Assembly (NCBI GenBank): GCA_965369655.1
Contig: CBDUQR010000014.1
Span: forward strand, 1-59,815
Direction: 5' to 3'
Length of the DNA stretch: 59,815 bases
DNA from: an uncultured bacterium
GTDB taxonomy: Bacteria > Zixibacteria > MSB-5A5 > JAABVY01 > JAHJOQ01
Within the stretch, counting starts at the first letter, position 1; each line of letters opens with the position of its first letter. A model generated the notes under the pieces. It saw only the letters and a program-made list of their open reading frames with translations, was not told the origin of the DNA and made no database searches. Of this stretch, positions 19,967-44,061 are shown one piece after another. The position numbers were made by a program, and so were the translations under genes.

Positions 19967-19967
19967 C

Positions 19968-24391: not shown

Positions 24392-24630
24392 ATGACAAGG
24401 TACGAGATCCACGCGAGGTGATAAGAGAGGAAATGCTCATGCGTGACAGGGTGTTGGCCACTTTGCGCGACGGCCCCAAAACCGTGCCGGAAATCGCCGA
24501 GGCCATGGGTTCTCCTGTGCACGAGATAATGTACTGGGTTATGGCGGCCAGGAAGTACGGCTACATCGAGGAAATCAAGGAACCGAATGAAGACGACTAC
24601 TACCAGTATATGCTGGTGGAGAATAAATAG
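24388..24630 (+). CDS. Small winged-helix protein of the hdr cluster
   Basis: LRDGPKTVPEIAEAMG..VMAARKYG; ATGA overlap with hdrA. Confidence 0.7.
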   Translation: MNDKVRDPREVIREEMLMRDRVLATLRDGPKTVPEIAEAMGSPVHEIMYWVMAARKYGYIEEIKEPNEDDYYQYMLVENK

Positions 24631-24631
24631 A

Positions 24632-24946
24632 ATGGTGACAGCAATGGTGAAGGTGAACCCGGATTTCATAAAGAAGGTGACGACGTCAGGGGAGTTCAAT
24701 GCCACGGCCTGCATGAACTGCGGCATCTGCAGCGCCGTATGCCCCATGGAGATCGAGTTGCTTCCCCGCAAGCTCTTCAGATACGCCCTGCTGGGTCTGG
24801 AGGACAAGATACTCGAACACGAGCAGGTCATCTACCAGTGCCTGTTGTGCAAGATGTGCGAGGTGAACTGCACGGCTGACGTGCACATCGCCGAGAACGT
24901 AAGATTCTTGCGCAGCTACATCAGCAAAGAGGTATTCAAGCTTTAG
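24632..24946 (+). CDS. HdrC-like 4Fe-4S dicluster protein
   Basis: CMNCGICSAVCP and CLLCKMCEVNC. Confidence 0.88.
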   Translation: MVTAMVKVNPDFIKKVTTSGEFNATACMNCGICSAVCPMEIELLPRKLFRYALLGLEDKILEHEQVIYQCLLCKMCEVNCTADVHIAENVRFLRSYISKEVFKL

Positions 24947-24961
24947 CGAAGGAGAAACTTT

Positions 24962-25924
24962 ATGCCTCTTCCCACCGGCGACGTGATTGGACTCATGGTG
25001 GACAATCTCAAGAGAAGGGAAACTGTATTTCCTATCTCGCTTAGCAAGGCAATCAAGTGGGCCGAGGAACTCGATATCCCCGAAGGCGGCGAGACAGTAA
25101 TCTACACCGGTTCGATGTATCAGTTGCTGCCCTACATGGTTGCCGCGGTAAAGAATATGGGGCTCATAGAGGATTCTTTTCTCGGCAAATTCGTGTGTGT
25201 GGGCAGGTTCTTCAACAGGATGTTCAACGTATCGGCGTTCATCTCCAGGCCCTCGAGAACTAACGTGAAGCGCTACAGACAGATAATCCGCAACATCGCC
25301 ATGCTGCTGAAGCAGGCGGGAGTAGAGTTCGGCTACCTGTACAAGAAAGAGCTTTACGCCGGCGCTCTCGCATACGACTTGGGCGTGGACGATGTCTTTC
25401 GCATACAGGCCCAACGGGTCTACAACCTGCTGAAGGAGCACGGTGTCCGCTCCGTGATCACTATCGACCCTCACACCACGAATATGCTGCGCTCCGTGTA
25501 CCCGACCATCATCGATGGCTACGACATCGAGGTCAAAAGCTACCTGGAGGTCCTGGCTGCCAGCAATGGTCTTCAGCCGCTCCACAGCGTCGAAAAGGAA
25601 ATCACGGTCCACGACTCCTGTGTGTACTCGCGTTATGAAGGCGTCATCGAAGAGCCGAGACAGCTACTGAGGAGGGCGGGCTACACGGTAAAAGAGCCTG
25701 AGGATAACAGAGACCTGACCCATTGCTGCGGAGGACCCATAGAGTCGCTCTTCCCCAAGATGGCCCATCAAATCGGCGGGAAGAGGGTGCAGCAACTCAA
25801 GAATGCCAACGGGCAAAGCGTGGCCACCATGTGTCCAATCTGCATGGCCACCCTTGAAATGGCATCCGATGAGGAGTTGGAGATTGACGATATCTCCAGT
25901 TTTCTGGTGAAGGCTTTTTGTTAA
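24962..25924 (+). CDS. CCG-domain (Fe-S)-binding protein (HdrB/D-like)
   Basis: HDSC..SR, CCGG, CPIC; N-terminal CCG domain lacks cysteines. Confidence 0.85.
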   Translation: MPLPTGDVIGLMVDNLKRRETVFPISLSKAIKWAEELDIPEGGETVIYTGSMYQLLPYMVAAVKNMGLIEDSFLGKFVCVGRFFNRMFNVSAFISRPSRTNVKRYRQIIRNIAMLLKQAGVEFGYLYKKELYAGALAYDLGVDDVFRIQAQRVYNLLKEHGVRSVITIDPHTTNMLRSVYPTIIDGYDIEVKSYLEVLAASNGLQPLHSVEKEITVHDSCVYSRYEGVIEEPRQLLRRAGYTVKEPEDNRDLTHCCGGPIESLFPKMAHQIGGKRVQQLKNANGQSVATMCPICMATLEMASDEELEIDDISSFLVKAFC

Positions 25925-26079
25925 GCGTAAGAGAAACCCCGAAAGAAACGAAAGCGCCAAAAACAAGCGTAGTTAATCGTGACATGTGGCGACACCTAGC
26001 CGGTGACCGGAGAGCTGAAGGACAAGATGGCAGTAGGCATCATTGGGTCGGTCGGTTGATCGATGAGGAGGATGAGACC

Positions 26080-27315
26080 TTGTTAGATGAAGGAAAGTCG
26101 CTAGACGAGACCTGTACCCAGATGATCAGCGCCATGACCGACGCGGTGATCCTGGTCCACCCGGATGGGATGATCACCAAGGTAAACCAGGCGACCCTGT
26201 CTTTGTTGGACTACAATGAGGATGAAATCCTCTATTATCCGGCTCATAACATCCTGAGCGCCTCCCAAGACAAACAGTCCGAGTTATCCCCGGACGAGAT
26301 GATGGACAAGCACCTACTCGACGAGATACTGGCCAACATTGAGGGCTTTATGTTCCCCAGGGAAGGGGATCCGATACCCATCTCGCTGAGGAGCTCTTCT
26401 ATAAGAAACGATTCTGGCGAGGTGTCCGGAATCGTGCTGGTGGCCCGCGATCTCAGACCGACGAAGAAATTGATAGCAAAGGCAGCAGTGGCCGAGGCGG
26501 AACGGCATAAGCGCAAGGAACTGCAACAGGCCTATGACGAGCTCAAGCATCTGCAGGAGCAGCTAATCCAGAGCGAGAAGATGGTCTCCCTCGGCCAGAT
26601 CGCCGCCGGCGTGGCCCATGAGATCAACAACCCTATCAGCGGCATCATGGTCTACCTGCACATGCTTGCAAAGGATCTCGAGAACGACCAGTTCGATAGA
26701 AAGCAGGCTTTGACATTTCTCACCGACTCCAAGCATGAGCTCACCCGATGTTCCAAAATCATCAAGAGCCTGCTGGATTTTTCCCGCCAATCCCACCCGA
26801 TGCTCGCACCCGTAGATCTCGGCTATATTCTGAACGAGACCTTCAGCATGCTGGGTTACAAGGCAAAGCTGCAGGACATTGAGGTGGTCCAGCATATTGA
26901 CCCAGGACTTTCCCAGATCGAAGCGGACTCAGACCAACTGAAACAGGTTTTTCTCAATCTCATTCTCAACGCAATCCAGGCCATGCCCCATGGAGGTCAT
27001 CTGACCATCCACGCCACGCAGGTCAACGACAAGGAGGGGCTGACCAAAAACTCCAAGCCAGTGCGGATCGACATCGAGGATACGGGCTGCGGGATAGCCC
27101 AGGAGAACATGGGCAAACTGTTCACTCCATTCTTCACGACCAAGGAAAAGGGGGAAGGGGTCGGACTCGGCCTGGCCGTGGCATACGGAATCATCAAGCG
27201 CCACGGGGGCGATATCCGCGTAGTGAGTTCCAGAGGAAAGGGAACTACATTCAGCATCTTTCTGGGACACGAAGAGAAGCGGAAAAAGGAGGACGATAGT
27301 GGGGGTGCCCAATGA
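26080..27315 (+). CDS. PAS-domain sensor histidine kinase
   Basis: PAS (DAVILVHPDG..VNQA), AHEINNP, NLILNAIQA, DTGCG, FFTTK, GLGL; start set at TTG 26080 behind GAGGAG (ORF is open from 25918). Confidence 0.9.
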   Translation: MLDEGKSLDETCTQMISAMTDAVILVHPDGMITKVNQATLSLLDYNEDEILYYPAHNILSASQDKQSELSPDEMMDKHLLDEILANIEGFMFPREGDPIPISLRSSSIRNDSGEVSGIVLVARDLRPTKKLIAKAAVAEAERHKRKELQQAYDELKHLQEQLIQSEKMVSLGQIAAGVAHEINNPISGIMVYLHMLAKDLENDQFDRKQALTFLTDSKHELTRCSKIIKSLLDFSRQSHPMLAPVDLGYILNETFSMLGYKAKLQDIEVVQHIDPGLSQIEADSDQLKQVFLNLILNAIQAMPHGGHLTIHATQVNDKEGLTKNSKPVRIDIEDTGCGIAQENMGKLFTPFFTTKEKGEGVGLGLAVAYGIIKRHGGDIRVVSSRGKGTTFSIFLGHEEKRKKEDDSGGAQ

Positions 27316-28670
27316 AATCAGCGGTGCGGATCATGGTGGTGGACGACGAGAAGATCGTCCGCGAATCTCTCTCGGTGTGGCTTCGGAAGTTTGGTTACGA
27401 AGTCGTGCCGGTGGAAGGTGGTCAGGAGGCGCTGGATCTCCTGGATCGCGAGGAGTGGACTATCCTGCTCGTGGATCTGAAGATGCCCCGCATCGATGGA
27501 ATCGAGGTACTCCGCAAGGCGCTGGAGGTGAAACCGGACATTTCGGTCATCATCTTTACGGCGTATGCTACGGTTGAGACAGCGGTTGAGGCGATGAGGG
27601 TCGGTGCCTACGACTACCTTGTCAAGCCGATTGACCCCGACATGCTGACTTTGAAGGTGCAGAAAATCATCGAGAGGCAGGATCTTGAAGATGAAAATAT
27701 CATGCTGCGCGAGAAGATCGATGCCATCTACCAGTTCGACGAGATCATCGGTAACAGCAAATCCATACAGGATGTGCTAGAGATGGTCGGCTCGGTGGCC
27801 GCCAGCGATGCGACGGTGCTTATCACCGGCGAGAGCGGAACCGGCAAGGAGCTGATCGCCCAGGCCATCCACCGCAACAGCGAGCGCCGCTATAAACCGT
27901 TCGTGGCCGTCTCCATAGGGGCGTTGCCCGATACCATGGTAGAGAGTGAGCTGTTCGGACACGAGAAGGGCGCTTTCACCGGGGCAAGCCATGCACACAT
28001 GGGAAGGTTTGAGCTCGCCGACGGCGGCACGCTGTTTCTGGACGAGGTCGGCGATATGAGCCCCAAGGTGCAGGTCGACCTGCTGCGGGTGCTGGAGGAG
28101 AAGGCCTGCTACCGGTTGGGCGGCAATCGCAAGATACACATGGACGTGAGAGTAATCGCCGCAACGAATAAGGTCCTGAAGAAGAGCATTGAGGAAGGCA
28201 GCTTTCGCGAAGACCTCTACTACCGCCTCAACGTCGTCGGAATTCACCTGCCCCCACTGAGGGAGAGAAAAGATGACGTTCTCCTTCTCGCTGAGTACTT
28301 CCTGAAGAAGTTCTGCATGAAGATGAACAAAAAGAAGGAGGAATTCTCCCCCAGGGTGATCGAGATGTTATTGAGACACAAATGGCCCGGCAACATTCGC
28401 GAGTTGGAGAACGCTATTGAGAGAGCCGTAGTCGTGGGCAAGGGGCCGCTGGTTCAACCGCAGGATATGCCCTTCGGCGGCGGTCAGGAGCCCCCCAAAG
28501 AGAAAGCCGCAAAGAGCCTGAGGGAGGCGGAGAAGAAGCACATACTGCAAGTGCTGGACGAGACCGGCTGGAATGTCACCCGCTCCGCCCATCTGCTTGA
28601 GATCGACAGGGCCACGCTGTACAACAAGATCAAGAACTACGGCCTATCGAAGCCCAGGGACCGACGCTGA
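27312..28670 (+). CDS. sigma54-dependent response regulator (NtrC family)
   Basis: Receiver [32 protein letters not shown], Fis HTH. Confidence 0.96.
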
Positions 28671-28686
28671 CAGAGCCGAGCCACTG

Positions 28687-29259
28687 ATGTCGCCGTGCGA
28701 ACCTCCGGGCAAGTTCTGCATCGTCTCCCTTGGAGATACTCCTGACGGTGCAGAGGAGAGAGCTCGCTCCGCCGTACGGTCCCGCTTCAAGCTCAATTGC
28801 GAAATCCTCTCCCCCGAGCCGCGGCCCGAATTTGCCCTGGATGCCTCACGGGATCAATACGACTCCCTGGAAATACTGGACTGGCTGGAGAGCAGGTTTC
28901 CCCGTCCTGACCAGTGGATCCTCGGTATCACTAACGTCGACCTGACCATTCCTGTGCTGACCTTCGTCTTCGGGCAGGCCAGGCTCGGGGGCCGCAGCTC
29001 GGTGATTTCCGCCTTCCGCCTGCGCGAGGAATTCCACGGGCGTCCAGCCGACACGATGGTGTTCCTGTCACGTGTGGAGAAGGAGGCCATCCACGAGGTG
29101 GGGCACATGCTGGGTCTTACCCACTGCTTGGACCGCAACTGTGTGATGTACCCCTCCAACAGCCTGGCTCAGACCGACGTGAAGTCGACCAGGCTCTGTT
29201 CTGAATGTCGCTCCAGCCTTCCTCCTTGGTGCTTGGCAGGGCCATCCGGTCCGGACTGA
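28687..29259 (+). CDS. Archaemetzincin (peptidase M54) Zn metalloprotease
   Basis: TFVFGQA, KEAIHEVGHMLGLTHC...CVM..S...D.K...LC..C. Confidence 0.9.
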   Translation: MSPCEPPGKFCIVSLGDTPDGAEERARSAVRSRFKLNCEILSPEPRPEFALDASRDQYDSLEILDWLESRFPRPDQWILGITNVDLTIPVLTFVFGQARLGGRSSVISAFRLREEFHGRPADTMVFLSRVEKEAIHEVGHMLGLTHCLDRNCVMYPSNSLAQTDVKSTRLCSECRSSLPPWCLAGPSGPD

Positions 29260-29389: not shown

Positions 29390-29405
29390 TGGCATGCCAA
29401 TTGCT
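29390..29405 (+). promoter_or_regulatory. sigma54 (-24/-12) promoter
   Basis: TGGCATGCCAATTGCT (GG-N10-GC) 44 nt before ATG 29449; enhancer-like TGTGTGAAAATCGCGACA at 29265..29282. Confidence 0.75.
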
Positions 29406-29448
29406 TGTTTCCATTGCAGATGCAAACGAAAGCCAAGAGGAGAAAGAC

Positions 29449-30750
29449 ATGTCACTGGTGACAATGAAGATCGACGGACACGAGGTCAAGGCAGAAGGTC
29501 GGGAGCCGATTCTGAAGCCAATACGGGATCTGGGCATTGATGTTCCCACCTTGTGCCACATGGACGGTCTGGAACCCTACGGCGTGTGCCGCATGTGCAT
29601 CGTAGAGGTAAGGCGTGGCAAGCGTACCAGGCTGGTGACATCATGTAACTTTCCGGCCGCTGAGGGACTCGAGATACGGACCGATACCGAAGATGTACTT
29701 CAACACCGCAGGCTGATGGCCGAGCTTCTCCTGGCCAGATGTCCCGAGGTCAAGAAGGTACAGGAGATCGCAGCCTCGCTGGGCGTGGAGAAGCCACGTT
29801 TCAAGACCGCCAGCCAGCCGAGCGACTGCGTGCTGTGCGGGTTGTGCGTTCGCGTATGCGACGAGATCGTGGGTGCATCAGCGCTGGGCTTTATCGGTCG
29901 TGGCAACCAGCGGGTGGTCGGGACTCCCTGGTACGTAGACCCCGATTCTTGCATCGCTTGCGGGGCCTGTACCTACGTGTGCCCAACGGGAGCTATGCAG
30001 ATGGAGGCGGTGACCAGGGAGCGGTGGCGGAAGGAACTCGGGGAAGGCCAGCGGCTCTGCCGGTATGCTCGCATGGGACTGGTCTCTCACAAAGTATGTC
30101 CCAACAACTTCGACTGCGCCACTTGCGAGGTAGACCAGCGCCTCTTCGACGAGTTCGGGACACATCCAATCCTGGCCTTAGCGCCCGGTCTACATCGGCA
30201 GCCTAAAAATGTCGGCCATTTCATCCTGATAGAAGACCGCACTTACTTCCAGGGGCATACCTGGGCGAAGATATTGAAAGAGCACACACGTGTGGGTCTG
30301 GACGACTTCGCCCAAAGACTCATCGGAGGCATCTCCAAAGCGGTGTTCAGAGCGGGACCGGGCGACGTGGTGCACCGCGGGGACCCAGCCGTGGACGTGT
30401 CCAGCAACGGGCATCGCGCTACCATGCTCTTCCCGATCCCGGGCAGGATCATCCACATTAATCCCGCCCTGGAGGACAATCCCTCGCTGATTAACGAGGA
30501 CTGCTATGACCGGGGCTGGCTCTACACGATAAAGCCAGTGGACCCTTATAAGGATAAGAGTAGTCTCATCGGCCCGGACGAAGCCGGCCAATGGATACAG
30601 GACGAGTCGGACTGCCTGTTCCGCGTCCTGACCGAATCCAGAAGCGCCGCATTGTCCGACGGTGGTGAGTTGTTACCGAACTTCTCCAGGAATCTTGAGA
30701 AGAAAGACTGGGAGCGGATTACTAAAAGATTCTTTTCAGAGGGCGAATAG
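29449..30750 (+). CDS. HydA/NuoG-N-like [2Fe-2S]+2[4Fe-4S] protein fused to a Cys motif and GcvH-like domain
   Basis: PTLC..GVCRMC..TSC; CVLCGLCVRVC; CIACGACTYVCP; HTWA..RVGLDDFAQ..PIPG..N..CYDRGWL; no H-cluster motifs. Confidence 0.85.
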   Translation: MSLVTMKIDGHEVKAEGREPILKPIRDLGIDVPTLCHMDGLEPYGVCRMCIVEVRRGKRTRLVTSCNFPAAEGLEIRTDTEDVLQHRRLMAELLLARCPEVKKVQEIAASLGVEKPRFKTASQPSDCVLCGLCVRVCDEIVGASALGFIGRGNQRVVGTPWYVDPDSCIACGACTYVCPTGAMQMEAVTRERWRKELGEGQRLCRYARMGLVSHKVCPNNFDCATCEVDQRLFDEFGTHPILALAPGLHRQPKNVGHFILIEDRTYFQGHTWAKILKEHTRVGLDDFAQRLIGGISKAVFRAGPGDVVHRGDPAVDVSSNGHRATMLFPIPGRIIHINPALEDNPSLINEDCYDRGWLYTIKPVDPYKDKSSLIGPDEAGQWIQDESDCLFRVLTESRSAALSDGGELLPNFSRNLEKKDWERITKRFFSEGE

Positions 30751-30775
30751 AGTTAAGCCGCTCAGGAGGTGAGTC

Positions 30776-31720
30776 ATGTCTGAAAAACGAGCGAAGAAAT
30801 CGGAACTGATACCCACATCGGCCAGACAGTGCGTGTGGGTTGATGCGGGTGTCATCTCCTACAAGATCTGCACGCTGAACTACGAGTGCGAGCGCTGTTC
30901 CCTGCACCAGGCACTGGTCGACGGGCCGGTGCTGGTTCAACCGCACGCTTCCCCATCCCCAAACCTGGCGGAGGTCAAGAAGCGACGCGCTGAGTTTGAA
31001 GAGTTCTTCAAGAAACTGCCCGCCTCTGCGCGCAAATGTCACTACATGTTGACAGGGGAAGTTTCCTACAAGTTGTGTATCAACGGGTTCAACTGCGCTA
31101 ATTGCTCTTTTCAGCAGATGATCGAGGATTCGGCCGAGGCGGAGACGGGTTGGGACTTTCCCGTTGATGATTCGCGCTCGATCGAGGGCTTCCGTCTTCC
31201 CCAGGGGATGCACCACCACAGAGGCCACACCTGGGTTCGCGTGGAGCGCGACGGCAATGTTCGCGTGGGCATGGACGATTTCGGGCAGTGGCTACTGGGC
31301 TCCGTCCAGGGCGTGCGGCTGCCGAGCCCCGGCGAGACCATCTTCGAGGGCACACCGGCCTGCGAGATCCGCCTCGATACTGGGCGGATCAGCCCCCTGG
31401 CACCAGTATCCGGACGAATCATCGCAACAAATGAGAGGCTGCTGGAGCAGCCGGCGCTGGTGAACGAGTCGCCATATACCAACGGGTGGCTCCTCATGGT
31501 GAAGCCCTTCGATCTACCGTCCGAGCTAGTGAACCTCCTATACGGAGGAAGGGCCAGAAGATGGATCGAGCAGGAGATTGGACGGGTCAGGGAAAAGGTT
31601 AATGGGAACGGTAGACTGTGGAACATCCATGAACTAGAGAAGGATGCGACCTGGCGGGAAAATCTGATCGACGAGATAGCAGGCGAGTTCCTGCTGGCGA
31701 AGCTGAAGAAGGTAGCATGA
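30776..31720 (+). CDS. GcvH-like protein with two N-terminal Cys motifs
   Basis: HTWVR..VRVGMDDF..APVSG..N..PYTNGWL; lipoyl-Lys absent. Confidence 0.85.
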   Translation: MSEKRAKKSELIPTSARQCVWVDAGVISYKICTLNYECERCSLHQALVDGPVLVQPHASPSPNLAEVKKRRAEFEEFFKKLPASARKCHYMLTGEVSYKLCINGFNCANCSFQQMIEDSAEAETGWDFPVDDSRSIEGFRLPQGMHHHRGHTWVRVERDGNVRVGMDDFGQWLLGSVQGVRLPSPGETIFEGTPACEIRLDTGRISPLAPVSGRIIATNERLLEQPALVNESPYTNGWLLMVKPFDLPSELVNLLYGGRARRWIEQEIGRVREKVNGNGRLWNIHELEKDATWRENLIDEIAGEFLLAKLKKVA

Positions 31721-31755
31721 AGGGGTATCCCCAAAAAAGAGAAAGAGAGAATTAG

Positions 31756-32235
31756 ATGGAAGTACAGGAAGCCAAACTGGACGACATATTAACCCAGTGG
31801 AAGCGTGACAAGAGCAATCTGATCGAGATGCTTCAGGATGTTCAGGAGCACTACCGCCACATCCCATCGCAGATTGCCGGCACACTTGCCGAGGAGCTTG
31901 ATGTGCCCCTGAACCGCATTTTCCACATCGCCACCTTCTACAAGGGATTCTCCCTGGAGCCGCGCGGAAAGTATCCCGTCTGTGTATGCACTGGCACGGC
32001 CTGCCACGTAAAGGGCGGGACGCGCATCCTCGAAAACATCATGCGCAATCTGGGCGTGGAGAAAGAAGGCCAGACGACCGAGGATCAGCTCTTCAGCGTG
32101 GAATCGGTGCGCTGTCTGGGATGCTGCGGACTGGCACCGGTGGTGACCGTCGGTGGAGAAGTGTACGGCAATACCTCTTCGGTGAAAATGAAAAAAATCC
32201 TGGACAAACGTCGAAAGAACGAGCAGGCGCAATAA
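31756..32235 (+). CDS. nuoE: NuoE/HydC-like [2Fe-2S] subunit
   Basis: ATFY, CTGTACHVKG, CLGCCGLAP. Confidence 0.9.
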   Translation: MEVQEAKLDDILTQWKRDKSNLIEMLQDVQEHYRHIPSQIAGTLAEELDVPLNRIFHIATFYKGFSLEPRGKYPVCVCTGTACHVKGGTRILENIMRNLGVEKEGQTTEDQLFSVESVRCLGCCGLAPVVTVGGEVYGNTSSVKMKKILDKRRKNEQAQ

Positions 32236-32256
32236 AATCTTTTATGGAGGCAATCG

Positions 32257-32640
32257 ATGCCCAGACTGAAAATCGAAGATCTCGACAAGATCGTGGAGCA
32301 GCAGAGGAAAACCACATCCCTGAGGGATGGGGCCGGTCGGGTCAAGATCACGGTGCACATGGGTACCTGCGGAATCTCGGCTGGTGCACGGAAAATAATG
32401 GCTGAGGTCATGCGCTGCGTGGAGGAGTCGGGTGCCAGCGACATCATCATTACCACCTCCGGCTGTGCGGGTTTCTGCAGCCGCGAGCCAATGATGACCG
32501 TCGAAGTGATCGAGCAAGCCCCTGTAAAGTACGTAGAGCTTGACAATAAGAAGGTGAGTAAGATTTTTGACGAGCATATCATGAACGGAAATGTCGTCGA
32601 AGATTATGCCCTGGCCATAGGGGGAGAGCAGACGCTATGA
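32257..32640 (+). CDS. Thioredoxin-like (2Fe-2S) ferredoxin (HndB/HydD-like)
   Basis: HMGTCGISAGAR, GCAGFCSREP. Confidence 0.9.
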   Translation: MPRLKIEDLDKIVEQQRKTTSLRDGAGRVKITVHMGTCGISAGARKIMAEVMRCVEESGASDIIITTSGCAGFCSREPMMTVEVIEQAPVKYVELDNKKVSKIFDEHIMNGNVVEDYALAIGGEQTL

Positions 32641-34508
32641 GTACGACACCGAGCAAGAACGTAGAGGGAAAGTCACCTGTCGGCAAGGATCTGGGCGACT
32701 ACCGCATGCATCTTATGCTTTGCGCCGGAACCGGTTGTGTCTCCGGCGGTTCTTACAAAATCAAAGATGCTCTGGAACGCGAGTTGGCAAAACATAAACT
32801 CATCGACGAAGTGGCCGTGGTCATGACCGGATGCAACGGCTTCTGTGCCCAGGGACCAGTCATGGTAGTTCAGCCGGACGAAATCTTTTACCAATTTCTC
32901 AGCGAAAAGGACATTCCCCACCTGGTCGAAGAGCACATGCTCAAGGGCCGGCCGGTCGAGAAGCTCATGTTCACACCACCAGATGAGAAGTCGGTTGTGC
33001 CCAAGATGAGCGAGATTGGCTTTTTCAAAAAGCAGCGACTTCTTGCGCTTCGCAACCGCGGCCTGATTGACCCGGAGGTGATAGAGGAGTACATTGCAAG
33101 GGATGGTTACAAGGCCCTGGCCAAGGTACTCACCGAGATGAAACCCGAGGAGGTCGTCCAGGAGATGATCGCTTCAGGGCTTCGCGGGCGCGGTGGCGGG
33201 GGTTTCCCCACTGGCATCAAGTGGAAGAGTTGCCGCGAGGCGCCCGGAGAGATCAAGTACGTCGTCTGCAATGCGGACGAAGGTGACCCCGGTGCTTACA
33301 TGGACCGCAGCATCATCGAGGGGGACCCTCACTCCGTGCTGGAGGGCATGATCATCGCCGCCTATGCCATTGGGTCCAACAAGGGATATATCTATATCCG
33401 CCATGAGTACCCCCTGGCCCTCGAGCGTTTGAAAAAGGCCATCGCCGACGCGCGCGAGTACGGCATCCTGGGCAAGAACATCTTTGATCAGGGCTTCGAT
33501 TTCGATATCACTATTCACCTTGGAGCCGGCGCTTTCGTATGTGGCGAGTCCACAGCCTTGATGGCATCCATGGAAGGCCGGCCTGGCGAGCCACGCGCCA
33601 AGTACATCCACACCGTGGAGCATGGCCTGTGGGACCAGCCCACCAACCTGAACAATGTAGAGACCTATGCCAACGTGCCCCTGATCATTCTGCGCGGCGT
33701 CGAGTGGTTCACCTCCATCGGCACCGGCGACGTGACCGACAACCCCTGGGGCGGCAGCAAGGGCACCAAGGTCTTCTCCCTGGTGGGTAAGGTCCGGAAC
33801 ACCGGCCTGGTGGAGGTACCCATGGGGATAACCCTGCGGGAGATCATCTTCGACATCGGTGGAGGCGTCCCCAACGGTAAAAAGTTCAAGGCGGTGCAGA
33901 CCGGCGGGCCTTCGGGAGGCGTGATTCCGGAAAGCTTGCTCGACTTGCCGGTGGACTTCGACCAGCTCACCAGGGTGGGTTCGATGATGGGCTCGGGCGG
34001 CATGATCGTAATGGACGAGGACGACTGCATGGTGGACATCGCCCGATACTTCATCGACTTCCTCGTCGATGAATCATGTGGCAAGTGCCTGCCGGGTCGC
34101 GAGGGACTGACGCAAATTAGCAAAATACTTAACGATATCTGCAGAGGTAAGGCCCAAGAGGGAGTCCTTGATCTACTGGAAGAAACCTGCAGTACAGTCG
34201 CAAACTGTTCGCTCTGCGCGCTGGGTGGATCGGCGCCCAACCCTGTGCTGAGTACACTTAGATACTTCCGAGATGAGTACGAGGCTCACGTCCGGGACAA
34301 GAAGTGCCCGGCGGGGTTGTGCAAGGCCCTGATCACCTATTACATCGACGCCGAGAAGTGCAACGGCTGTATGCTATGTGCAAGAGAATGCCCGGAGAAC
34401 GCCATTGAGGGCGAAAAAAAGAAGCCTCACAAGATAAATACCGATCTGTGTATAAAGTGCGGCATCTGTCGAGATGTATGCAACAGGGATGCGGTTATAG
34501 TAGAGTAA
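32637..34508 (+). CDS. nuoF: NuoF/HydB-like flavoprotein (long, bifurcating type)
   Basis: N-terminal CAGTGC..GCNGFC; GLRGRGGGGFP; NADEGDPGAYMDR; GAFVCGE; GGPSGG; C-terminal 2x[4Fe-4S]. Confidence 0.93.
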   Translation: MSTTPSKNVEGKSPVGKDLGDYRMHLMLCAGTGCVSGGSYKIKDALERELAKHKLIDEVAVVMTGCNGFCAQGPVMVVQPDEIFYQFLSEKDIPHLVEEHMLKGRPVEKLMFTPPDEKSVVPKMSEIGFFKKQRLLALRNRGLIDPEVIEEYIARDGYKALAKVLTEMKPEEVVQEMIASGLRGRGGGGFPTGIKWKSCREAPGEIKYVVCNADEGDPGAYMDRSIIEGDPHSVLEGMIIAAYAIGSNKGYIYIRHEYPLALERLKKAIADAREYGILGKNIFDQGFDFDITIHLGAGAFVCGESTALMASMEGRPGEPRAKYIHTVEHGLWDQPTNLNNVETYANVPLIILRGVEWFTSIGTGDVTDNPWGGSKGTKVFSLVGKVRNTGLVEVPMGITLREIIFDIGGGVPNGKKFKAVQTGGPSGGVIPESLLDLPVDFDQLTRVGSMMGSGGMIVMDEDDCMVDIARYFIDFLVDESCGKCLPGREGLTQISKILNDICRGKAQEGVLDLLEETCSTVANCSLCALGGSAPNPVLSTLRYFRDEYEAHVRDKKCPAGLCKALITYYIDAEKCNGCMLCARECPENAIEGEKKKPHKINTDLCIKCGICRDVCNRDAVIVE

Positions 34509-34634: not shown

Positions 34635-36557
34635 ATGAGCTGGAAGAGGACAATATGGTTCCGGCTGAGCGTAGGCTTTATTGCGATCATCCTGGTGACC
34701 AACGTTGTGCTGTTTCTAATCACCCTGTTTGGCGTCAGTGAAATCGTCGTTGAAGAGGTGCAGACCCGCGTACGCATGGACCTCAACTCCGCTTGCAAGG
34801 TATTCGAAGAGCACGTAGACGACATTTGTCTCCTGCTCCGGGCAACCTCAGCGCGCCGTAGTGTCCCCGTTCCGCTTGAAAGCTGGGACAGGGATGATCT
34901 GCACAAACTTTTGGGGAGCATCTGGCAAGCAGGAGAGTTGGACATGCTCTTCCTGTTGGACAAGGATGGCCGGGTCGTCTACCGCAAACACAATCCAGGA
35001 CAGATGGGAGATGATATCTCGCATAACCCGATAGTCGCCCGGGCTTTGAGGAAGAAAAAATGTGTCCGGGGCACGGCGGTCGTGACGTACGAGGAGTTGG
35101 GAAGAGAATCTGCCGATATACTGCACAGGGCGTCTATCGAGATAAAGCCCACCGAGGCCGACCAGTCTGGAGAGAGAAAAATTCACCGCGATGGAATGGT
35201 CATTGGAGCGGCAGTTCCCCTGGTGGACCTGCGAAGAGACGGGGAGATTGTGGGATTTCTGTACGGAGCAAAACTTCTGAACCGGAGTTCCGAGATTGTT
35301 GATGAGATCAAAGAGGATCTGTACGAGGACGAGAGCTACCAAGGCATGGACATCGGAGCTGTTACGATTTTCCAGGGAGGTGTCCGTATTTCCACCAGCA
35401 TAATGAGAGAGGACGGCTCGCGGGCCGTTGGCACCCGGGTGAGTACTGTGGTTCATGAGAAAGTGCTGGAAATGGGGAAGACATGGGCCGAACGGGCCTT
35501 CGTGGTCGATGATTGGTATATTACCGCCTATGCGCCGATCCGTGACCCCGAAGACAGGGTCATTGGAATCCTGGGAGTTGGCATACAGGAAGAGCCGTTC
35601 ATCCACAACCAGAGGATCGCAGCATGGATCTTTCTTGGCGTGGTGACTTTCACGACCATGATCAGCTTAGTACTGCTGATCATCGCGACCAGAATCGTCC
35701 TACGTCCCATCGGGCGGATCATCAAGATGTCCGACAAGGTCGTGGCGGGCGACCTGTCGGCCCGGGTGAATATGCGGCCTCCCGGTGAGATGGGCCTGCT
35801 CTGCCTAGCGATCGATCAGATGGCCGACGCTGTAGCGCAAAGAGAGGAAGCACTTGTGCAGGCAACTCGTCGACAGATCGGACAGAGTGAGAAGATGGCA
35901 TCAATAGGCCGAATGTCGGCAGGTATCGCCCATGAGATCAACAACCCGCTAACCGGACTGCTGACCTTCGAGCACCTGCTGAAGAGTGAGGAAGGTCTCA
36001 GCGACAAGGGAAAGGAATACCTCGAAATCATGTACAACGAGACCTCTCGGATGCGTGAGATCGTCCGGGGACTGCTGAATTTTGCCCGTGAGTCCTCCCT
36101 GGAGATGAAACCCCTGGGTGTCAACGAGGTGATTCGGCAATGGTTTAAGCTCCTGCGCAGCCAGAAAGAGTTCAAGGATATAACCATCGAAGAGAAACTC
36201 GCCGAGGGTCTGTCCAGGGTAAATGGTGATACCAATCAATTGCAGCAGGTGTTCGTCAATCTCTCTCTTAACGCCTGCGAAGCCATGCCTGATGGTGGCA
36301 TACTGTCGATTTCCACCTCGGAGGGAGACGGAAAAGTGCTGATCTCAATAGCGGATACCGGCTGTGGTATCAAGGGAGAGCACCTCGGAATGATATTCGA
36401 ACCGTTCTTTACGACCAAATCGGTTGGAAAGGGAACTGGTCTCGGCCTGAGTGTGAGCTATGGCATAATCCGCAAGCATGGTGGAACCATAGAGGTGGAG
36501 AGCCAGGAGGGCGAGGGTACCACCTTTACAGTTACCCTGCCCGTGGTGTCCGGATGA
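34635..36557 (+). CDS. Cache/HAMP membrane sensor histidine kinase
   Basis: Two TM helices around a Cache-like domain ([17 protein letters not shown]), HAMP, AHEINNP, G boxes. Confidence 0.92.
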
Positions 36558-36604
36558 TCGTCTCGCTGTCGAACGCCGGATAGCTGACGAAGGAGATCTG
36601 AACA

Positions 36605-37942
36605 ATGCGCAAGAAATTCAGAATACTTGTTGTGGATGACGAGCTTTCCATCCGCATCTCCCTGGGAGATTTGCTGAAACGCGATGGATATCAGGTGGAG
36701 GTGGCCGAGAGCGCCGAGTCAGCGCTGGAGATGTTGAAGACGCAGTCGTTCGATTTGCTGATAGTGGACGTCAAGATGCCCGGTATGGACGGCTTGGAGA
36801 TGCTGGAGCGGGTCAAGGAGGACGATCCCGACACCACCGTGGTTGTGATGACCGCTTATGGCTCTATCGATTCTGCGGTCCATGCGATGCAGCTCGGCGC
36901 CATCGACTACGTAGCCAAGCCATTCGACCCGCTAAAGATCGGGACACTCGTCAAGCAGATTTATAAGAACGAGCTAATGCAGCGCGAGCATAAGCTGCTC
37001 AAACATCAAGTGGAAGTATGCGGCAGCTATGGACCGATAATCGGCCAGTCGCCGGCCATGCTGAAGTTGTTTGAACTCATCGAGGACGTATCCTCCACAG
37101 ACTCGGTGGTGCTAATATCGGGCGAGAGTGGAACCGGTAAGGAGGTGCTGGCACGCACGATCCACGAAAAGAGTCCCCGGTCGAACGGGCTGTTCGTGGG
37201 TGTCAATTTCGGTGCTTTCACAGAATCCCTCTTGGAAAGCGAGCTGTTCGGGTATGAAAAGGGAGCCTTCACAGGAGCTACTACGTCCAAGAAGGGTCTG
37301 TTGGAGATCGCCTCCGGAGGGACATTCTTTTTAGACGAGATTGGAAACGCAAGTCCAAAGATGCAGATCGATCTGCTCAGGGTGCTCCAGGAGCGGAAGT
37401 TCCGGAGGGTCGGGGGACTTAGGGATGAGGAGGTGGACTTCAGGGTGCTCGCGGCCACTAATCGTGACCTGGAAAAGGCTATAGAGGAGGGAAGCTTCCG
37501 ACAGGACCTCTATTATCGGCTAAATGTCGTGCAGATTCACATACCACCATTGCGGGAACGCAGGGAGGACATTCCTGCTCTGGCTAAGCATTTCCTGGAG
37601 ATGCTGCGCGTGCGCTTGAACAAGAAGACCAGTTTGATTTCCCCCGAGGCCATGCAGTGTCTCGTCAACTACGACTGGCCCGGCAATGTCCGCGAGCTGG
37701 AAAACGCCATCGAACGAGCACTGGTAGTAGGCAAGCAGAAACGGATCATGCCGGAGGACCTGCCTATCATGCTGCAGGAACCCAGCGAAGGGCCGGCCGA
37801 TGAGTCTCTCGATTCCTGGGAGAGGGACTACATCGCCAGGAAGCTCGATCAGTACGAGTGGAACATAAGCCGGACGGCTCAGGCGCTGAAGATCGACAGG
37901 GGAACATTGTACGCCAAAATCGATAAATACGGGCTGTCTTGA
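36605..37942 (+). CDS. sigma54-dependent response regulator (NtrC family)
   Basis: [35 protein letters not shown]. Confidence 0.96.
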   Translation: MRKKFRILVVDDELSIRISLGDLLKRDGYQVEVAESAESALEMLKTQSFDLLIVDVKMPGMDGLEMLERVKEDDPDTTVVVMTAYGSIDSAVHAMQLGAIDYVAKPFDPLKIGTLVKQIYKNELMQREHKLLKHQVEVCGSYGPIIGQSPAMLKLFELIEDVSSTDSVVLISGESGTGKEVLARTIHEKSPRSNGLFVGVNFGAFTESLLESELFGYEKGAFTGATTSKKGLLEIASGGTFFLDEIGNASPKMQIDLLRVLQERKFRRVGGLRDEEVDFRVLAATNRDLEKAIEEGSFRQDLYYRLNVVQIHIPPLRERREDIPALAKHFLEMLRVRLNKKTSLISPEAMQCLVNYDWPGNVRELENAIERALVVGKQKRIMPEDLPIMLQEPSEGPADESLDSWERDYIARKLDQYEWNISRTAQALKIDRGTLYAKIDKYGLS

Positions 37943-37967
37943 GAGCAGCAAGCAGGAGTTAACGGTC

Positions 37968-38516
37968 ATGCCCCCCGGGGTAATAGAGATCGTGCCCCTA
38001 TACATCACGGACAAGAGACTGATGTCTGCCTTAGCCGCGGAGATCACGCGGATATTTCCATTCCCGTGCAGGGTTGGTGCCGCCGAGAGGCTGCCGGCTG
38101 GAGTCCTTGACGAAACGAGAGGGCAATATCATGCCACCCGGATCCTCGAGCACCTGGCTGCCTCCGACCGGACTTCCTTCCGGCTTTTGGGAGTAACAAA
38201 CCTGGATATTTTCACGCCGATCTTGCGTTACATATTCGGTGAGGCGATGCTCGAAGGGAGAGCTGCCCTGGTATCGACGTATCGGCTCAGCATCGCACCA
38301 CCTGGAGGTGTTCCCCCATGCAATCGCTCCGTCTTTGTCAGCCGCGTTCTTAAGGAAGGTATCCACGAGCTAGGCCATACCTTTGGCCTCACCCACTGTG
38401 ATGATCCTACCTGTGTGATGGCTGCCTCGCTTGACTTGACACACATCGACGCAAAGTCCACGCAGCTATGCTACTACTGCAGGATCATGCTGAAAGACGA
38501 GTTGGAGAGGACCTGA
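37968..38516 (+). CDS. Archaemetzincin (peptidase M54) Zn metalloprotease
   Basis: YIFGEA, KEGIHELGHTFGLTHC..CVM..S..IDAK...LC..C. Confidence 0.9.
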   Translation: MPPGVIEIVPLYITDKRLMSALAAEITRIFPFPCRVGAAERLPAGVLDETRGQYHATRILEHLAASDRTSFRLLGVTNLDIFTPILRYIFGEAMLEGRAALVSTYRLSIAPPGGVPPCNRSVFVSRVLKEGIHELGHTFGLTHCDDPTCVMAASLDLTHIDAKSTQLCYYCRIMLKDELERT

Positions 38517-38544: not shown

Positions 38545-40368
38545 TTAGCCTCTAAGAAACTTGCGCAGCACTTTGGACCAACGAACACCGGAGATGCCGG
38601 CCAGGGCATCGTGGGCGAGCGTGGCGCCGTCCGCGGCGGTTGCAATCCTGTCCTGAAACATTTTGCTCAGCCGAACCACTTCGCTCCTCTGCCAGTTGTG
38701 GGCGTTCTCACTGAACATAAGCTTAGTGATATTGTCCTTGGATACCTCGGGACGAATCGTAAGCAGCCAACCATCGTCGTACGGTTGAGCCGAAAGAACT
38801 CTTGGTGTATCGACGACCGACTGGTTGACCACAATTACCTCGCCATCCATCGGGGAGCACACCTCTACCGACTCGCCGTTGCGGATCAGGCGCAGCGCCG
38901 GCTTTCCCTGCCGCAGTTTCTCGCCCGGCTTGGGCATCTCGACGGTATCAACGTTGCCGATCAAGTGGGCAGCCAGATCGTCGATCCCGACGCGGACAGA
39001 ATCGTCCTTTTCGGAGCGCACCCAGGAATGTCCACGATAATAGAAAAGGTTAGAGGGCATCTCGCAGCCGAGCAGCGCCGGATCCAACTCCTCTTCTTCC
39101 TCTGGTAGCTCTGCGTACGCAAGAGCCTTGAACTGGTCGGCATCACGCACGAGGTTGTCCGCACCTATGACAGCCAGCAGCGAAGCGGGGTCGGCACGCA
39201 TGTCACCCAGCTTCTTGAACTGTCCCTGGAAAGAACGCAATACCGCTTTTGAGATCAATGTGCGTTCACTGGGCGTCAGAACCACGCCGGAAGCCACAAT
39301 TCCGGTAAGTATCGGTTGCGCACTCGCTATGTCCAGAGTGCCTGTGTCGATCATGCGCAGCATCTCGTCTATAAGCACTCGACCTGCGTACAATATTCCA
39401 TCCTCTGGGACGATTTTAAGTACGCGACCAATACCCACAGCTGCCGCCAACTCGGAAGGAGTGACCAACAATCCGTTGTACACTTTACCGAGCAGCCCGC
39501 CGGCGAAGCTGATCAGTGTTGCCGCGCGCTCAACCGTCTCGTCAGTTAGACTAACAGACATATATGTGTGGGACTGGAGGATCCGCTGAACGATGAGAGC
39601 CATCTGTGCCATGGTCATCGAGAAGTAACGAGATGTTGCGATGGCATCGTGCAACTCCTTGAGCACGTTGATGTCAAAGGCCGAGATTACATCGAGGATG
39701 GCTAGCCCCTGTATGGCCCGAAGAGCATCCCACCGCTCGTCCCGGGTCCGTTCCTCGGAGACCGAGTTCAACAGACCGTGGGGCAGTAGCGCTTCCTTTA
39801 ACATCGACTCGGCGAATGCCCAAAGATCAAGCAAGTCGAGGCGGTCGAGGAATGAGGCCGACACTACCAATGCGAACTGCTCCTCCATCGTATGCAGACC
39901 CAGATCGTCTGGGGTGAGCTTTTCTTCCGCGGAGATTTTTCCGAGGTTGCGGAGTTCAAACAGCCGGCTCAACATATCCACGTGTAGGCCGTTCCGGCGA
40001 CTTATTTGCTGGATCAGAGAGGCGTTGGTGCCAATAGACAGGCGCCCGATCCCCATTATGGTCAGCACCCGTGATGCGGCGGCGTTCGTGCGAGACCAAT
40101 TGGCCATGCACGGACCAGCGAATGGACAAGGTCGTCCCGGGACCGCGCAGGCATTAACAAAACACTGGTCGAAAAAGTCCTTGCTGAAAAATAATTTTTG
40201 CTTGTGCGAGGATATCTTGGTCAGGGCAGTGTCCACTGGACATCCTGCACAGTCATCGGGACGAGACTCGCACATCTGCGAGGACACCACACCGGATGAT
40301 TGCCAAATACAACTACCCTTCCTCCTTCTACCCTCGATCTTCACCGCCTTGGAATCTGCTTCTTTCAT
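38545..40368 (-). CDS. Cys-motif + helical domain + C-terminal GcvH-like protein
   Basis: N-terminal CIW...G.....MC......C..C; C-terminal HSWVR..VRVGIDD..SPMDG..N..PYDDGWL; no lipoyl-Lys. Confidence 0.8.
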   Translation of the reverse strand: MKEADSKAVKIEGRRRKGSCIWQSSGVVSSQMCESRPDDCAGCPVDTALTKISSHKQKLFFSKDFFDQCFVNACAVPGRPCPFAGPCMANWSRTNAAASRVLTIMGIGRLSIGTNASLIQQISRRNGLHVDMLSRLFELRNLGKISAEEKLTPDDLGLHTMEEQFALVVSASFLDRLDLLDLWAFAESMLKEALLPHGLLNSVSEERTRDERWDALRAIQGLAILDVISAFDINVLKELHDAIATSRYFSMTMAQMALIVQRILQSHTYMSVSLTDETVERAATLISFAGGLLGKVYNGLLVTPSELAAAVGIGRVLKIVPEDGILYAGRVLIDEMLRMIDTGTLDIASAQPILTGIVASGVVLTPSERTLISKAVLRSFQGQFKKLGDMRADPASLLAVIGADNLVRDADQFKALAYAELPEEEEELDPALLGCEMPSNLFYYRGHSWVRSEKDDSVRVGIDDLAAHLIGNVDTVEMPKPGEKLRQGKPALRLIRNGESVEVCSPMDGEVIVVNQSVVDTPRVLSAQPYDDGWLLTIRPEVSKDNITKLMFSENAHNWQRSEVVRLSKMFQDRIATAADGATLAHDALAGISGVRWSKVLRKFLRG

Positions 40369-40448: not shown

Positions 40449-40464
40449 AGCAATTTCCGGGCCA
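40449..40464 (-). promoter_or_regulatory. sigma54 (-24/-12) promoter of 38545..40368
   Basis: Minus strand TGGCCCGGAAATTGCT (GG-N10-GC); palindrome TGTGGGAAAACGCCACA at 40662..40678. Confidence 0.7.
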
Positions 40465-40798: not shown

Positions 40799-41149
40799 AT
40801 GACGCTGAGAGAGCTTGCAAATCTTCTGGAAGCGGAGGTGATCTCCGGCGAACAGCATCTGGATGAAGAATTTGAATGCGCCGGTGCGTCGGATCTCATG
40901 AGTGACGTCCTGGCATTCGGTGAGCCGGGAATCGTCCTGTTGACCGGATTGGCAAATGCCCAGTCCATACGGACCGCCGACGTAATTGAAGCTAAGGCCA
41001 TCGTCTATGTACGCGGCAAGAAGCCCAACAAAGAGGGAGTCACCCTGGCAAAGAAGAGAGACATTCCCATATTGTCGACGAGATTCTTCATGTACAAGGC
41101 GTGTGGGCTGCTTTACAGCCGAAAGGTAAGCGGAGTAGGAAATCAATAG
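40799..41149 (+). CDS. DRTGG-domain protein
   Basis: ASDLMSDVLAF, LLTGL.N.QSIRTA, VRGK.P. Confidence 0.85.
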   Translation: MTLRELANLLEAEVISGEQHLDEEFECAGASDLMSDVLAFGEPGIVLLTGLANAQSIRTADVIEAKAIVYVRGKKPNKEGVTLAKKRDIPILSTRFFMYKACGLLYSRKVSGVGNQ

Positions 41150-41165
41150 TGAGTCGAACGGTACA

Positions 41166-43317: not shown

Positions 43318-43323
43318 TCCACG

Positions 43324-44055: not shown

Positions 44056-44061
44056 GAAGTA

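Follow-up and report, generated by a model that had tools for sequence, protein, structure and literature searches.

The contig CBDUQR010000014.1 (GenBank assembly GCA_965369655.1) of an uncultured Zixibacteria bacterium, 59,815 nucleotides long and called the window here, carries a forward-strand run of five genes (29449-34508) whose products are related to the BfuABC (HydABC/Hnd-like) family. Here, we report that the first of them, a BfuA-like electron-transfer subunit, continues into a four-cysteine (4-Cys) motif and a fold of the glycine cleavage H-protein (GcvH) without the lipoyl lysine, and that the locus represents a genuine and conserved Bfu family variant, so far undescribed, which carries a new accessory module. 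The 4-Cys-GcvH unit also exists on its own and is mobile, which was not foreseen in the preliminary description of this DNA. The features of the run are as follows (aa, amino acids; E, expectation value).

29390..29405, + strand: sigma-54-type site TGGCATG-N4-TTGCT, from a pattern scan, with sigma-54 activator genes just upstream
29449..30750, + strand: gene 1, BfuA-like subunit, 433 aa (Pfam Fer2_4, 2x[4Fe-4S], GCV_H at E 2.6e-18)
30058..30126, + strand: 4-Cys motif of gene 1, C204-x12-C217-x5-C223-x2-C226, invariant in 120/120 homologues listed
30220..30624, + strand: GcvH fold of gene 1, residues 258-392, lipoyl Lys replaced by Gly (Pfam, alignment, structure match)
30776..31720, + strand: gene 2, free (4-Cys)x2-GcvH protein, 314 aa (Pfam GCV_H at residues 149-262, E 9e-21; two 4-Cys motifs)
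31756..32235, + strand: BfuC / NuoE / HndA-like [2Fe-2S] subunit, 159 aa (PF01257, E 6e-46)
32257..32640, + strand: HndB-like thioredoxin-like ferredoxin, 127 aa (partial PF01257, E 7e-4)
32637..34508, + strand: BfuB / long NuoF, 623 aa (N-terminal 2Fe-2S, flavin mononucleotide (FMN) domain, SLBB, NADH_4Fe-4S, C-terminal 2x[4Fe-4S])

The promoter-like site, TGGCATGCCAATTGCT at 29390-29405 (+), lies 44 nucleotides 5' of the ATG at 29449 and was called with the sigma-54 promoter consensus. Please note that the count of the pattern TGGC-N7-TTGCW in the window says little by itself, since three occurrences are observed against 0.94 expected and 11 of 100 shuffles also reach three or more; two of the three, 29390(+) and 40449(-), are directly 5' of 4-Cys-GcvH genes. 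As the start of gene 1, the ATG at 29449 with its AGGAG-like site fits the homologues; the listed open reading frame (ORF) began at TTG 29356. The gaps between the five genes are 25, 35, 21 and -4 nucleotides and no terminator-like site is found on the + strand inside the run. The five genes would constitute one sigma-54-dependent operon, encoding a type-2 member of the BfuABC family. The preliminary description had named a sigma-54 promoter and a run of an A-like subunit, a GcvH-like protein, NuoE, a thioredoxin-like ferredoxin and a long NuoF, and all these elements are present where it placed them. Its GcvH-like protein (gene 2) does contain a GCV_H domain but is not a plain GcvH, since two 4-Cys motifs are added to it.

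The BfuA-like subunit and the bifurcating core

The BfuA-like subunit starts with a [2Fe-2S] cluster A1 (ligands C36, C47, C50 and C66) and two ferredoxin-type [4Fe-4S] clusters, A2 and A4 (C127-C137 and C168-C178, i.e., CxxCxxCxxxC twice), followed by the 4-Cys motif, the GcvH fold and a helical tail of about 50 residues. The 12 Fe-S cysteines and the four cysteines of the motif are invariant in the best 120 homologues listed. No H-cluster, molybdopterin or flavin domain is found in the subunit by Pfam scan, and the His-ligated A3 site of NuoG/HydA, HxxxCxxCxxxxxC, does not occur in its sequence. Thus the cluster content described earlier for the A subunit, its lack of an H-cluster or molybdopterin domain and its continuation into a 4-Cys motif and a GcvH fold all stand, the first two on Pfam and sequence and the last on a structure match given below. 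BfuA subunits that are truncated and depend on separate partners already form a described class, the type 2 Bfu (PMC9304861), which makes the basic design less exotic than the preliminary description implied. The subunit has what defines a type 2 BfuA, i.e., A1, A2 and A4 without A3 and without a catalytic domain; as to cluster A5, absent in type 2, four invariant cysteines follow A4 here, and the corresponding cysteines of WorA bind Zn.

WorA is itself a type-2 BfuA without A3, in which the four cysteines that bind A5 in other BfuA proteins form a Zn finger; its C-terminal helix, buttressed by this finger, recruits the partner at A4, with electrons running S4-A4-A2-A1 (PMC12318220). The AlphaFold model of our A subunit (predicted local distance difference test (pLDDT) 91.9, predicted template modelling score (pTM) 0.82, from a 120-row alignment) has WorA as its best structural match over residues 1-219 (9mqx_A, Z 20.3, root-mean-square deviation (rmsd) 3.8 Å, 215 aligned). 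Because the four invariant cysteines and the tail sit where WorA has its Zn finger and adaptor, we read the tail as a putative coupling device; that the two 4-Cys sites are equivalent is suggested only by an overlay reaching to residue 219.

The remaining core is very probably of the Bfu/HydABC bifurcating type. In the Bfu family, the BfuBC core is invariant and contains clusters B1-B5 and C1 (PMC9304861). NuoF of the window aligns over its full length with HydB (7q4v_B, E 3e-242), with BfuB of Acetomicrobium mobile (7t2r_B, E 3e-234) and with WorB (9mqx_B, E 6e-227); it has a Complex1_51K domain (the site for FMN and for reduced nicotinamide adenine dinucleotide (NADH)), NADH_4Fe-4S and the B3/B4 Fer4 region at 568-619, and the strings GDPGA.M, TKVF and GGPSG are visible in its alignment. 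B5 is accounted for by 2Fe-2S_thioredx at residues 23-99 and C1 by the site in NuoE, with the cysteines visible for both. The B2 ligands in A. mobile BfuB are C438, C476, H525, C531 and C536, the His being missing in non-bifurcating homologues (PMC9304861); all five are kept in our NuoF as C464, C502, H551, C557 and C562. The two earlier claims on this point, i.e., a long NuoF/HydB of the bifurcating type and a bifurcating module, are therefore borne out by the domains, the signatures, the alignments to solved subunits and the B2, B3/B4 and B5 sites.

All Bfu-type cluster sites of NuoF are present except one B1 cysteine. In the B1 (N3-type) motif ESCGxCxPC...C, the third Cys is Gly487 (ESCGKCLPG, window 34095-34097). 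This glycine is not a sequencing slip, because the two closest metagenome relatives (L088 and L091 in our numbering of related loci) have it too; the other 97 of 99 related NuoF-type matches have Cys.

The order NuoE-like protein, small thioredoxin-like ferredoxin, long NuoF matches HndA-HndB-HndC, and the HndB-like ferredoxin is kept at 78-84% identity in relatives. The HydABC/HndABCD enzymes differ in having the H-cluster domain of HydA/HndD and its maturases, both of which are absent here.

Lysine-less GcvH folds and the 4-Cys motif

The C-terminal parts of the proteins are true H-protein folds that are not lipoylatable at the normal site. Residues 258-392 of gene 1 superpose on the pea H-protein (1dxm_A) with Z 19.9 and rmsd 1.2 Å over 131 aligned residues, and residues 139-271 of gene 2 do so with Z 20.2 and rmsd 1.3 Å over 131 (AlphaFold model of gene 2, pLDDT 84.7), so the C-terminal region does fold as GcvH. 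When aligned to the canonical GcvH of the same genome, which lies on another contig beside gcvP, scores 168.6 bits and has the lipoylation site EAVKAV, the lysine position is G in gene 1, T in gene 2 and G in a third, 607-aa protein of the window (38545-40368, - strand); none of these three GcvH-like domains has a Lys within three residues on either side. The earlier view of a non-lipoylated domain is consistent with these replacements. Across the best 120 gene 1 homologues the lipoyl column has Lys in 6 and the next column has R, K or H in 117 (K in 43), thus Lys is not a requirement of the family, and the lipoyl hairpin has no conserved Cys or Lys. The NCBIfam GcvH scores of the window proteins (55-83 bits) are under the cut-offs of 116-117, with Pfam GCV_H above its cut-off. 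Identity with true GcvH or with LbpA was rejected on the absence of the lipoyl lysine. In short, the window proteins share the fold with GcvH and differ from it by having no lipoyl lysine and no gcvP/T neighbors, and by extra 4-Cys motifs and a tail of about 50 residues.

The 4-Cys motif, found once between the ferredoxin and GcvH parts of gene 1 and twice in gene 2, follows the pattern R.CRY.RMG..S.K.CPN...C..CEVDQ, with the four cysteines invariant in 30/30 copies. No Pfam family covers it, and the NCBIfam matches, to GcvH models and to NF045810 ("GcvH-related protein"), are all weak and below threshold. When the 4-Cys linker was compared by itself with PDB sequences, nothing significant was obtained (best E 0.44, a rubredoxin-type knuckle), and fold searches with whole models gave no match for the 4-Cys elements, which are too small for such a test. 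With a profile built on the 30 copies, 889 representative clusters out of 1.84 billion representatives are matched at E <= 0.001 and 174 at E <= 1e-10. Sorted by searches that used the domains of the window as queries, the best 150 representatives are distributed as follows: 58 have GcvH only, 13 BfuA plus GcvH and one BfuA only, 14 have a receiver domain followed by two motifs, one is a histidine kinase, and 63 are short without a further domain, many of them probably fragments. Pfam confirmed seven of the receiver-domain cases and the kinase; in P0151, P0154, P0158, P0160, P0161, P0164, P0188 and P0171 the doubled motif is at the C-terminus of the receiver-domain proteins or, in the histidine kinase, between TPR and HisKA. 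This use in response regulators and a kinase was not foreseen in the preliminary description. The 4-Cys motif is, accordingly, a mobile domain used in two-component signaling.

The fusion itself is widespread. Of 8000 candidates scored in a search with gene 1, 1302 proteins reach E <= 0.001, and the best 120 of them listed (39-91% identity, 383-466 aa) all carry GCV_H together with the Fe-S families; among the sources that are named are Zixibacteria (82%), Deltaproteobacteria/Desulfobacterales, Planctomycetota, Fermentibacteria and Aminicenantia. A chimera of this one assembly was rejected, as all 120 homologues listed share the fusion architecture. No longer fused form of the free GcvH-like protein turned up at E <= 1e-8, which is weak evidence.

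The third GcvH-like protein of the window, the 607-aa one, combines an N-terminal 4-Cys motif with the C-terminal lysine-less fold and has its own sigma-54-type site. Its GcvH part has 34 relatives of 352-642 aa, most of them 605-607 aa, with GCV_H as the only family and no Hdr fusion among the 34. For five of them the longest contig has the same length as that given for A::GcvH homologues, suggesting that both genes are on the same contigs. About 340 residues between its 4-Cys motif and its GcvH fold have no family match.

Our literature searches found no paper on a lysine-less GcvH domain on a Bfu/HydA-type subunit and no description of the 4-Cys motif or of its link to archaemetzincin, and they did not find archaemetzincin combined with heterodisulfide, sigma-54 or glycine cleavage. 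The main text of the Bfu family study (PMC9304861) has no mention of glycine cleavage, GcvH or lipoyl, a count that does not cover its supplementary tables, which may list the clade.

Gene neighborhoods and the genome-wide search for a partner

The run is surrounded by redox and regulatory genes, listed here.

19272..19529, + strand: TusA-like sulfur carrier (PF01206, E 5e-22); its stop overlaps the mvhD start (ATGA)
19526..25924, + strand: mvhD-like, hdrL (903 aa), hdrA (571 aa), 80-aa ORF, hdrC-like, hdrB-like (CCG domain); proposed partner complex
25918..29259, + strand: PAS histidine kinase, sigma-54 response regulator, archaemetzincin (M54, probable start 28687), upstream of the operon
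34635..38516, + strand: second cassette of Cache/HAMP histidine kinase, sigma-54 response regulator, archaemetzincin (family scan)
38545..40368, - strand: the 607-aa 4-Cys/GcvH protein, with its own sigma-54-type site at 40449-40464(-)
40799..44607, + strand: orf116, HATPase, HydS-like [FeFe]-hydrogenase-like protein, PHP phosphoesterase, HATPase; Hfs-like regulatory set
45618..46832, + strand: YeeE/YedE-type sulfur transporter (PF04143, E 7.5e-46)

The Hdr-like set is 4 kb upstream of the bfu operon. Its HdrL is an HdrA with a GltD-like insert, residues 149-655 of which match NAD(P)-binding GltD-type models (NF009410, E 2e-149). The MvhD-like protein (19526-19966) and three close relatives lack the CNWC and GC cysteines and have a CSVC pair near the C-terminus; the 80-aa ORF between hdrA and hdrC (24388-24630) is 81% identical in L007 and has no family match. 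YeeE is associated with TusA-type proteins. Each of the two M54 genes (28687-29259 and 37968-38516) ends a kinase/sigma-54-regulator operon beside a 4-Cys-GcvH gene, and both proteins keep the HExxHxxGxxH and Cys motifs of M54 archaemetzincins. The HydS-like protein (41609-42982) has 2x[4Fe-4S], an H-domain and a C-terminal FeS domain, and is flanked by HATPase and PHP genes; compared with the H-domain motif TSCCP it reads NSCPS, and its kinase-like and PHP flanks are as in regulatory Hfs-type sets.

The guanine plus cytosine content is 0.53-0.58 in the 20-44 kb segment and 0.45-0.53 in most of the flanks, and a DDE transposase fragment is found at 47748-48209. Of 40 relatives belonging to the same class, only a few have the complete 4-Cys-GcvH module and none of these is among the five same-family genomes, the other matches being ordinary GcvH. 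Taken together, the higher G+C, the transposase fragment and the absence of the module in same-family genomes suggest that the whole redox/regulatory island is laterally acquired or mobile.

We then consider what might complete the complex in this genome, which is 99.5% complete. The only Fe_hyd_lg_C match in it is the HydS-like gene of the window; HydG is absent, and the HydF-like matches are generic GTPases below cut-off. There is no formate dehydrogenase in the genome, molybdopterin being found only in NuoG, beside the complex-I NuoF, and no AOR/WOR/BamB-type enzyme, with zero AFOR_C matches. An enzyme of the formate dehydrogenase type and one of the WOR or Bam type were rejected on these grounds. 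The genome thus offers no known catalytic subunit to complete the complex; a hydrogenase or formate dehydrogenase subunit encoded elsewhere that could complete a known complex, raised earlier as a possibility, was not found. Its single NiFe hydrogenase is in its own hdrL-hdrA-mvhD-hydrogenase cluster (L168, C7), where hdrL-hdrA is one 1493-aa frame followed by mvhD and then by the NiFe hydrogenase small and large subunits. Two further Bfu-like sets of the genome are nuoE-nuoF (617 aa)-short bfuA (L167, C10) and nuoE-nuoF::gltD (1064 aa)-short bfuA (L169, C13).

To compare neighborhoods, 160 related loci were annotated by tblastn with the window's proteins. In four of them (L007, L094, L096 and L097) the order is tusA-mvhD-hdrL-hdrA-x-hdrC-hdrB-A::GcvH-nuoE-trxFd-nuoF, without gene 2 and with no gene between the two sets; the A subunit is 62% identical in L007, and the A tails are 48-52% identical in the other three. 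In all five relatives where that flank exists, tusA is 5' of mvhD, and L090 has a YeeE-type transporter and a second TusA beside tusA-mvhD. In L013, at 40% identity, the order is nuoE-nuoF-A::GcvH-GcvH-like-hdrL-mvhD, and more distant fusions are either behind gltD-like, nuoE and nuoF genes or beside nuoF::gltD fusions. The orf116-HATPase-HydS-like-PHP-HATPase set follows nuoF directly in L008, L093 and L097.

We also counted GltD-like domains, whether free, fused to NuoF or inside HdrL, within 7 kb in loci with both flanks of at least 6 kb. They are nearby in 11/13 fusion loci and 9/12 free-form loci, and in 4/29 loci with a BfuA-like subunit without GcvH; the loci are related and the counts not independent, i.e., they are indicative only. 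One of the two exceptions among the fusions, L093, has hdrL at about 7.1 kb. The tightest genomic partner of the 4-Cys-GcvH unit is the kinase/sigma-54 regulator/archaemetzincin cassette, which the preliminary description did not foresee either.

Candidate partners and roles of the 4-Cys-GcvH module

Domain content, conservation, folds and gene neighborhoods are observed directly; from them we propose, as the best-supported account but tentatively and at somewhat less than an even chance, a type-2 Bfu module coupled by its 4-Cys-GcvH tail to the HdrL/HdrA/MvhD/HdrBC set. Its parts deserve separate grades. From gene content and order, we lean slightly toward the Hdr-like set as the partner of the Bfu core; that the 4-Cys-GcvH module is the physical coupler, by analogy with WorA, is close to an even call, on its doubtful side. 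We infer all contacts, the direction of electron flow, the metal of the 4-Cys site and the substrate. Briefly, the BfuB/BfuC core with the extra HndB-like ferredoxin would bind NAD(H) and ferredoxin. Since BfuA is cut to A1, A2 and A4 and has no catalytic site, mid-potential electrons would have to enter or leave via A4 to a separate partner, and the tail and the free paralogue (gene 2) would hold this partner at A4, as the Zn-finger and helix adaptor of WorA does. The partner would be the TusA/MvhD-like/HdrL/HdrA/80-aa/HdrC/HdrB set, giving a two-module Bfu-Hdr enzyme built like BamDEFGHI. Electrons from NADH and reduced ferredoxin would then pass through A1-A2-A4 to the HdrL/HdrA flavins and on to the HdrBC disulfide site, which may act on di-, per- or polysulfide sulfur delivered by TusA. 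We consider such a high-potential substrate because of the CCG protein, the coupled tusA and the nearby YeeE-type transporter.

Two solved or described systems support parts of this model. In WorABCSL, the tungsten aldehyde oxidoreductase of A. mobile (PDB 9mqx), BfuA has, as here, A1, A2 and A4 without A3 or a catalytic domain and four cysteines after the ferredoxin domain, followed by the C-terminal adaptor that recruits the partner at A4 (PMC12318220). The adaptor is a short helix there, whereas here it would be a 4-Cys motif, a whole GcvH fold and a helical tail, and no WOR/AOR gene is found in this genome. Bam-Bfu, the BamDEFGHI part of the class II benzoyl-CoA reductase, shares BfuABC together with an HdrA-type flavoprotein, an MvhD-like protein and HdrBC/CCG-type proteins, and for it a Bfu module feeding an HdrA module, i.e., two bifurcating modules in series, has been proposed (PMC9304861). 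It differs in its tungsten BamBC, which has no counterpart here, whereas our locus has an HdrL with a GltD-like insert, TusA and a sulfur transporter, and GcvH on BfuA. The docking to a neighboring Hdr-like complex that was suggested earlier gains support from the contiguous gene sets of relatives, i.e., from gene neighborhood, and the adaptor role proposed with it becomes one of several readings. A complex prediction of residues 120-433 of A::GcvH with the MvhD-like protein scored 0.00, which speaks neither for nor against binding.

A number of observations weigh against the Bfu-Hdr coupling. In the window, genes for a kinase, a regulator and a protease lie between the Hdr set and the bfu operon, each of which has its own promoter, and L008 has a complete bfu operon but neither an Hdr nor a GltD-like gene in the 10 kb to each side. 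The free 4-Cys-GcvH form has an archaemetzincin within 1.5 kb upstream in 29/43 testable cases and a sigma-54 regulator within 3 kb upstream in 24/35, but HdrL/HdrA within 4 kb downstream in only 10/25; its gene heads varied operons, with NifU-like genes, an RDH-like gene plus a molybdopterin enzyme, or an ABC transporter. The 14 receiver-domain proteins and the single histidine kinase among the best 150 carriers of the 4-Cys motif point to signaling. The motif is conserved and probably metal-binding, and Zn, Fe or an Fe-S cluster are all possible. The MvhD-like protein does not have the CNWC cysteines of ordinary MvhD, and Gly487 may mean a three-Cys B1 cluster or a weakened path from FMN to BfuA.

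Several of these observations are what a sensory role would draw on. According to this alternative, the main one, which we consider unlikely but give real weight, 4-Cys-GcvH is a signaling device of the kinase/sigma-54 regulator/archaemetzincin cassette, with a 4-Cys site that senses redox or metal; the BfuA-fused module would read the NADH/ferredoxin poise via A4 and tune the transcription or activity of the redox operons, and the GcvH fold would relay the signal or be processed by the protease. The cassette directly 5' of the free form at the frequencies given above, the use of the motif as the output part of receiver-domain proteins, its presence in one histidine kinase and the varied downstream operons speak for it, as do the region itself, dense in regulators with two two-component systems and the Hfs-like set, and the intact motifs of both M54 proteins. 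Both window copies obey the cassette rule, and the second sigma-54-type site precedes the 607-aa paralogue. However, the fusion model is compact and confident at the pTM given above, the module is covalently joined to an electron-transfer subunit in at least 120 homologues, and such a covalent fusion fits a structural role at least as well; in the four contiguous relatives the fusion directly follows hdrB with no cassette in front, and an ordinary structural gene would also be expected first behind a regulated promoter. A bolder form, a "sensory Bfu" in which 4-Cys-GcvH at A4 reports the NADH/ferredoxin poise to the sigma-54 two-component system with archaemetzincin as the processing partner, is a little less likely still; the unit would be a metal- or redox-sensing element that doubles as a receiver-domain output and a kinase input, and its logic would be comparable to that of sensory hydrogenases.

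The GltD-like domains raise another alternative, an NADPH-linked complex of the transhydrogenase type like NfnABC/StnABC, in which the GltD/NfnB-like domain in HdrL is the partner and the Hdr parts are secondary. These enzymes (8oh5, 9n5u) share the Bfu core and a GltD-like NADPH flavoprotein, and BfuB of the window matches 8oh5_B (E 3e-207) and 9n5u_B (E 2e-200); in NfnABC, however, the GltD-like part is fused to BfuA, whereas here it is inside HdrL and GcvH is on BfuA. The match of HdrL 149-655 to GltD-type models and the GltD-like domains near 20/25 well-flanked module loci versus 4/29 controls are in its favor, as are distant loci that read gltD-like, nuoE, nuoF, A::GcvH or nuoE, nuoF::gltD, but the counted loci are not independent, another contig of the genome already encodes a separate nuoE-nuoF::gltD-bfuA set, and the window clade keeps tusA, mvhD, hdrA, hdrC and hdrB with hdrL, none of which a plain transhydrogenase needs. 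We regard it as quite improbable. Even less weight goes to the idea that the Cys-rich GcvH-like proteins are a redox substrate of HdrBC, i.e., a lipoate-free counterpart of LbpA/DsrC whose cysteines would cycle between thiol and di- or persulfide with sulfur from TusA. An Hdr-like complex, TusA and a GcvH-fold protein are indeed the three parts of the sHdr-LbpA system and are genetically tied there too (PMC6067878), tusA is translationally coupled to mvhD here, and the YeeE-type transporter is nearby. Yet all 95 LbpA proteins keep the lipoyl lysine (PMC6067878), which the window's three proteins lack, and the 4-Cys motif, MvhD, HdrL and the Bfu core are additions of our locus; the invariant C-x12-C-x5-C-x2-C, ordered in the model (pLDDT 84-92), resembles a metal site rather than a swinging dithiol, the lipoyl hairpin has no conserved cysteine or lysine to offer, and the same motif is found in response regulators and in loci without sulfur genes. 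The least probable alternative, and by our estimate a very improbable one, is a simple bifurcating [FeFe]-hydrogenase whose H-cluster would reside in the HydS-like protein 7 kb downstream, a subunit apart like HytA in relation to HytD. Such a split is known from type-2 FeFe/Fdh-Bfu enzymes (PMC9304861), and the HydS-like set directly follows nuoF in the three loci named above, but the maturase HydG has no match and HydF none above cut-off in this nearly complete genome, TSCCP is reduced to NSCPS, and the flanking genes are of the regulatory kind.

These readings are not all exclusive; most of the data would be accommodated by a coupler that is also the first, regulated gene of its operon. Enzymes of the Bfu type form a major bifurcating class that is still poorly understood, and the way in which their core plugs into its partners is an open structural question. 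One type-2 plug has been solved so far, the Zn-finger and helix of WorA, and this locus points to a second, widespread one. The only labels given so far to 4-Cys-GcvH proteins are "glycine cleavage protein H" and "2Fe-2S-binding protein", and many annotations as glycine-cleavage components are misleading. We know of no function for archaemetzincin proteases. If the module is sensory, it links two-component signaling and these proteases to redox enzymes, and the "sensory Bfu", if true, would provide the first physiological partner for archaemetzincins. If the plug instead couples Bfu to HdrL/HdrA/HdrBC and TusA, it would define, for uncultured anaerobes (Zixibacteria-like, Desulfobacterota, Planctomycetota and others), a new cytoplasmic route by which the reduction of sulfur or disulfides is linked to NADH and ferredoxin.

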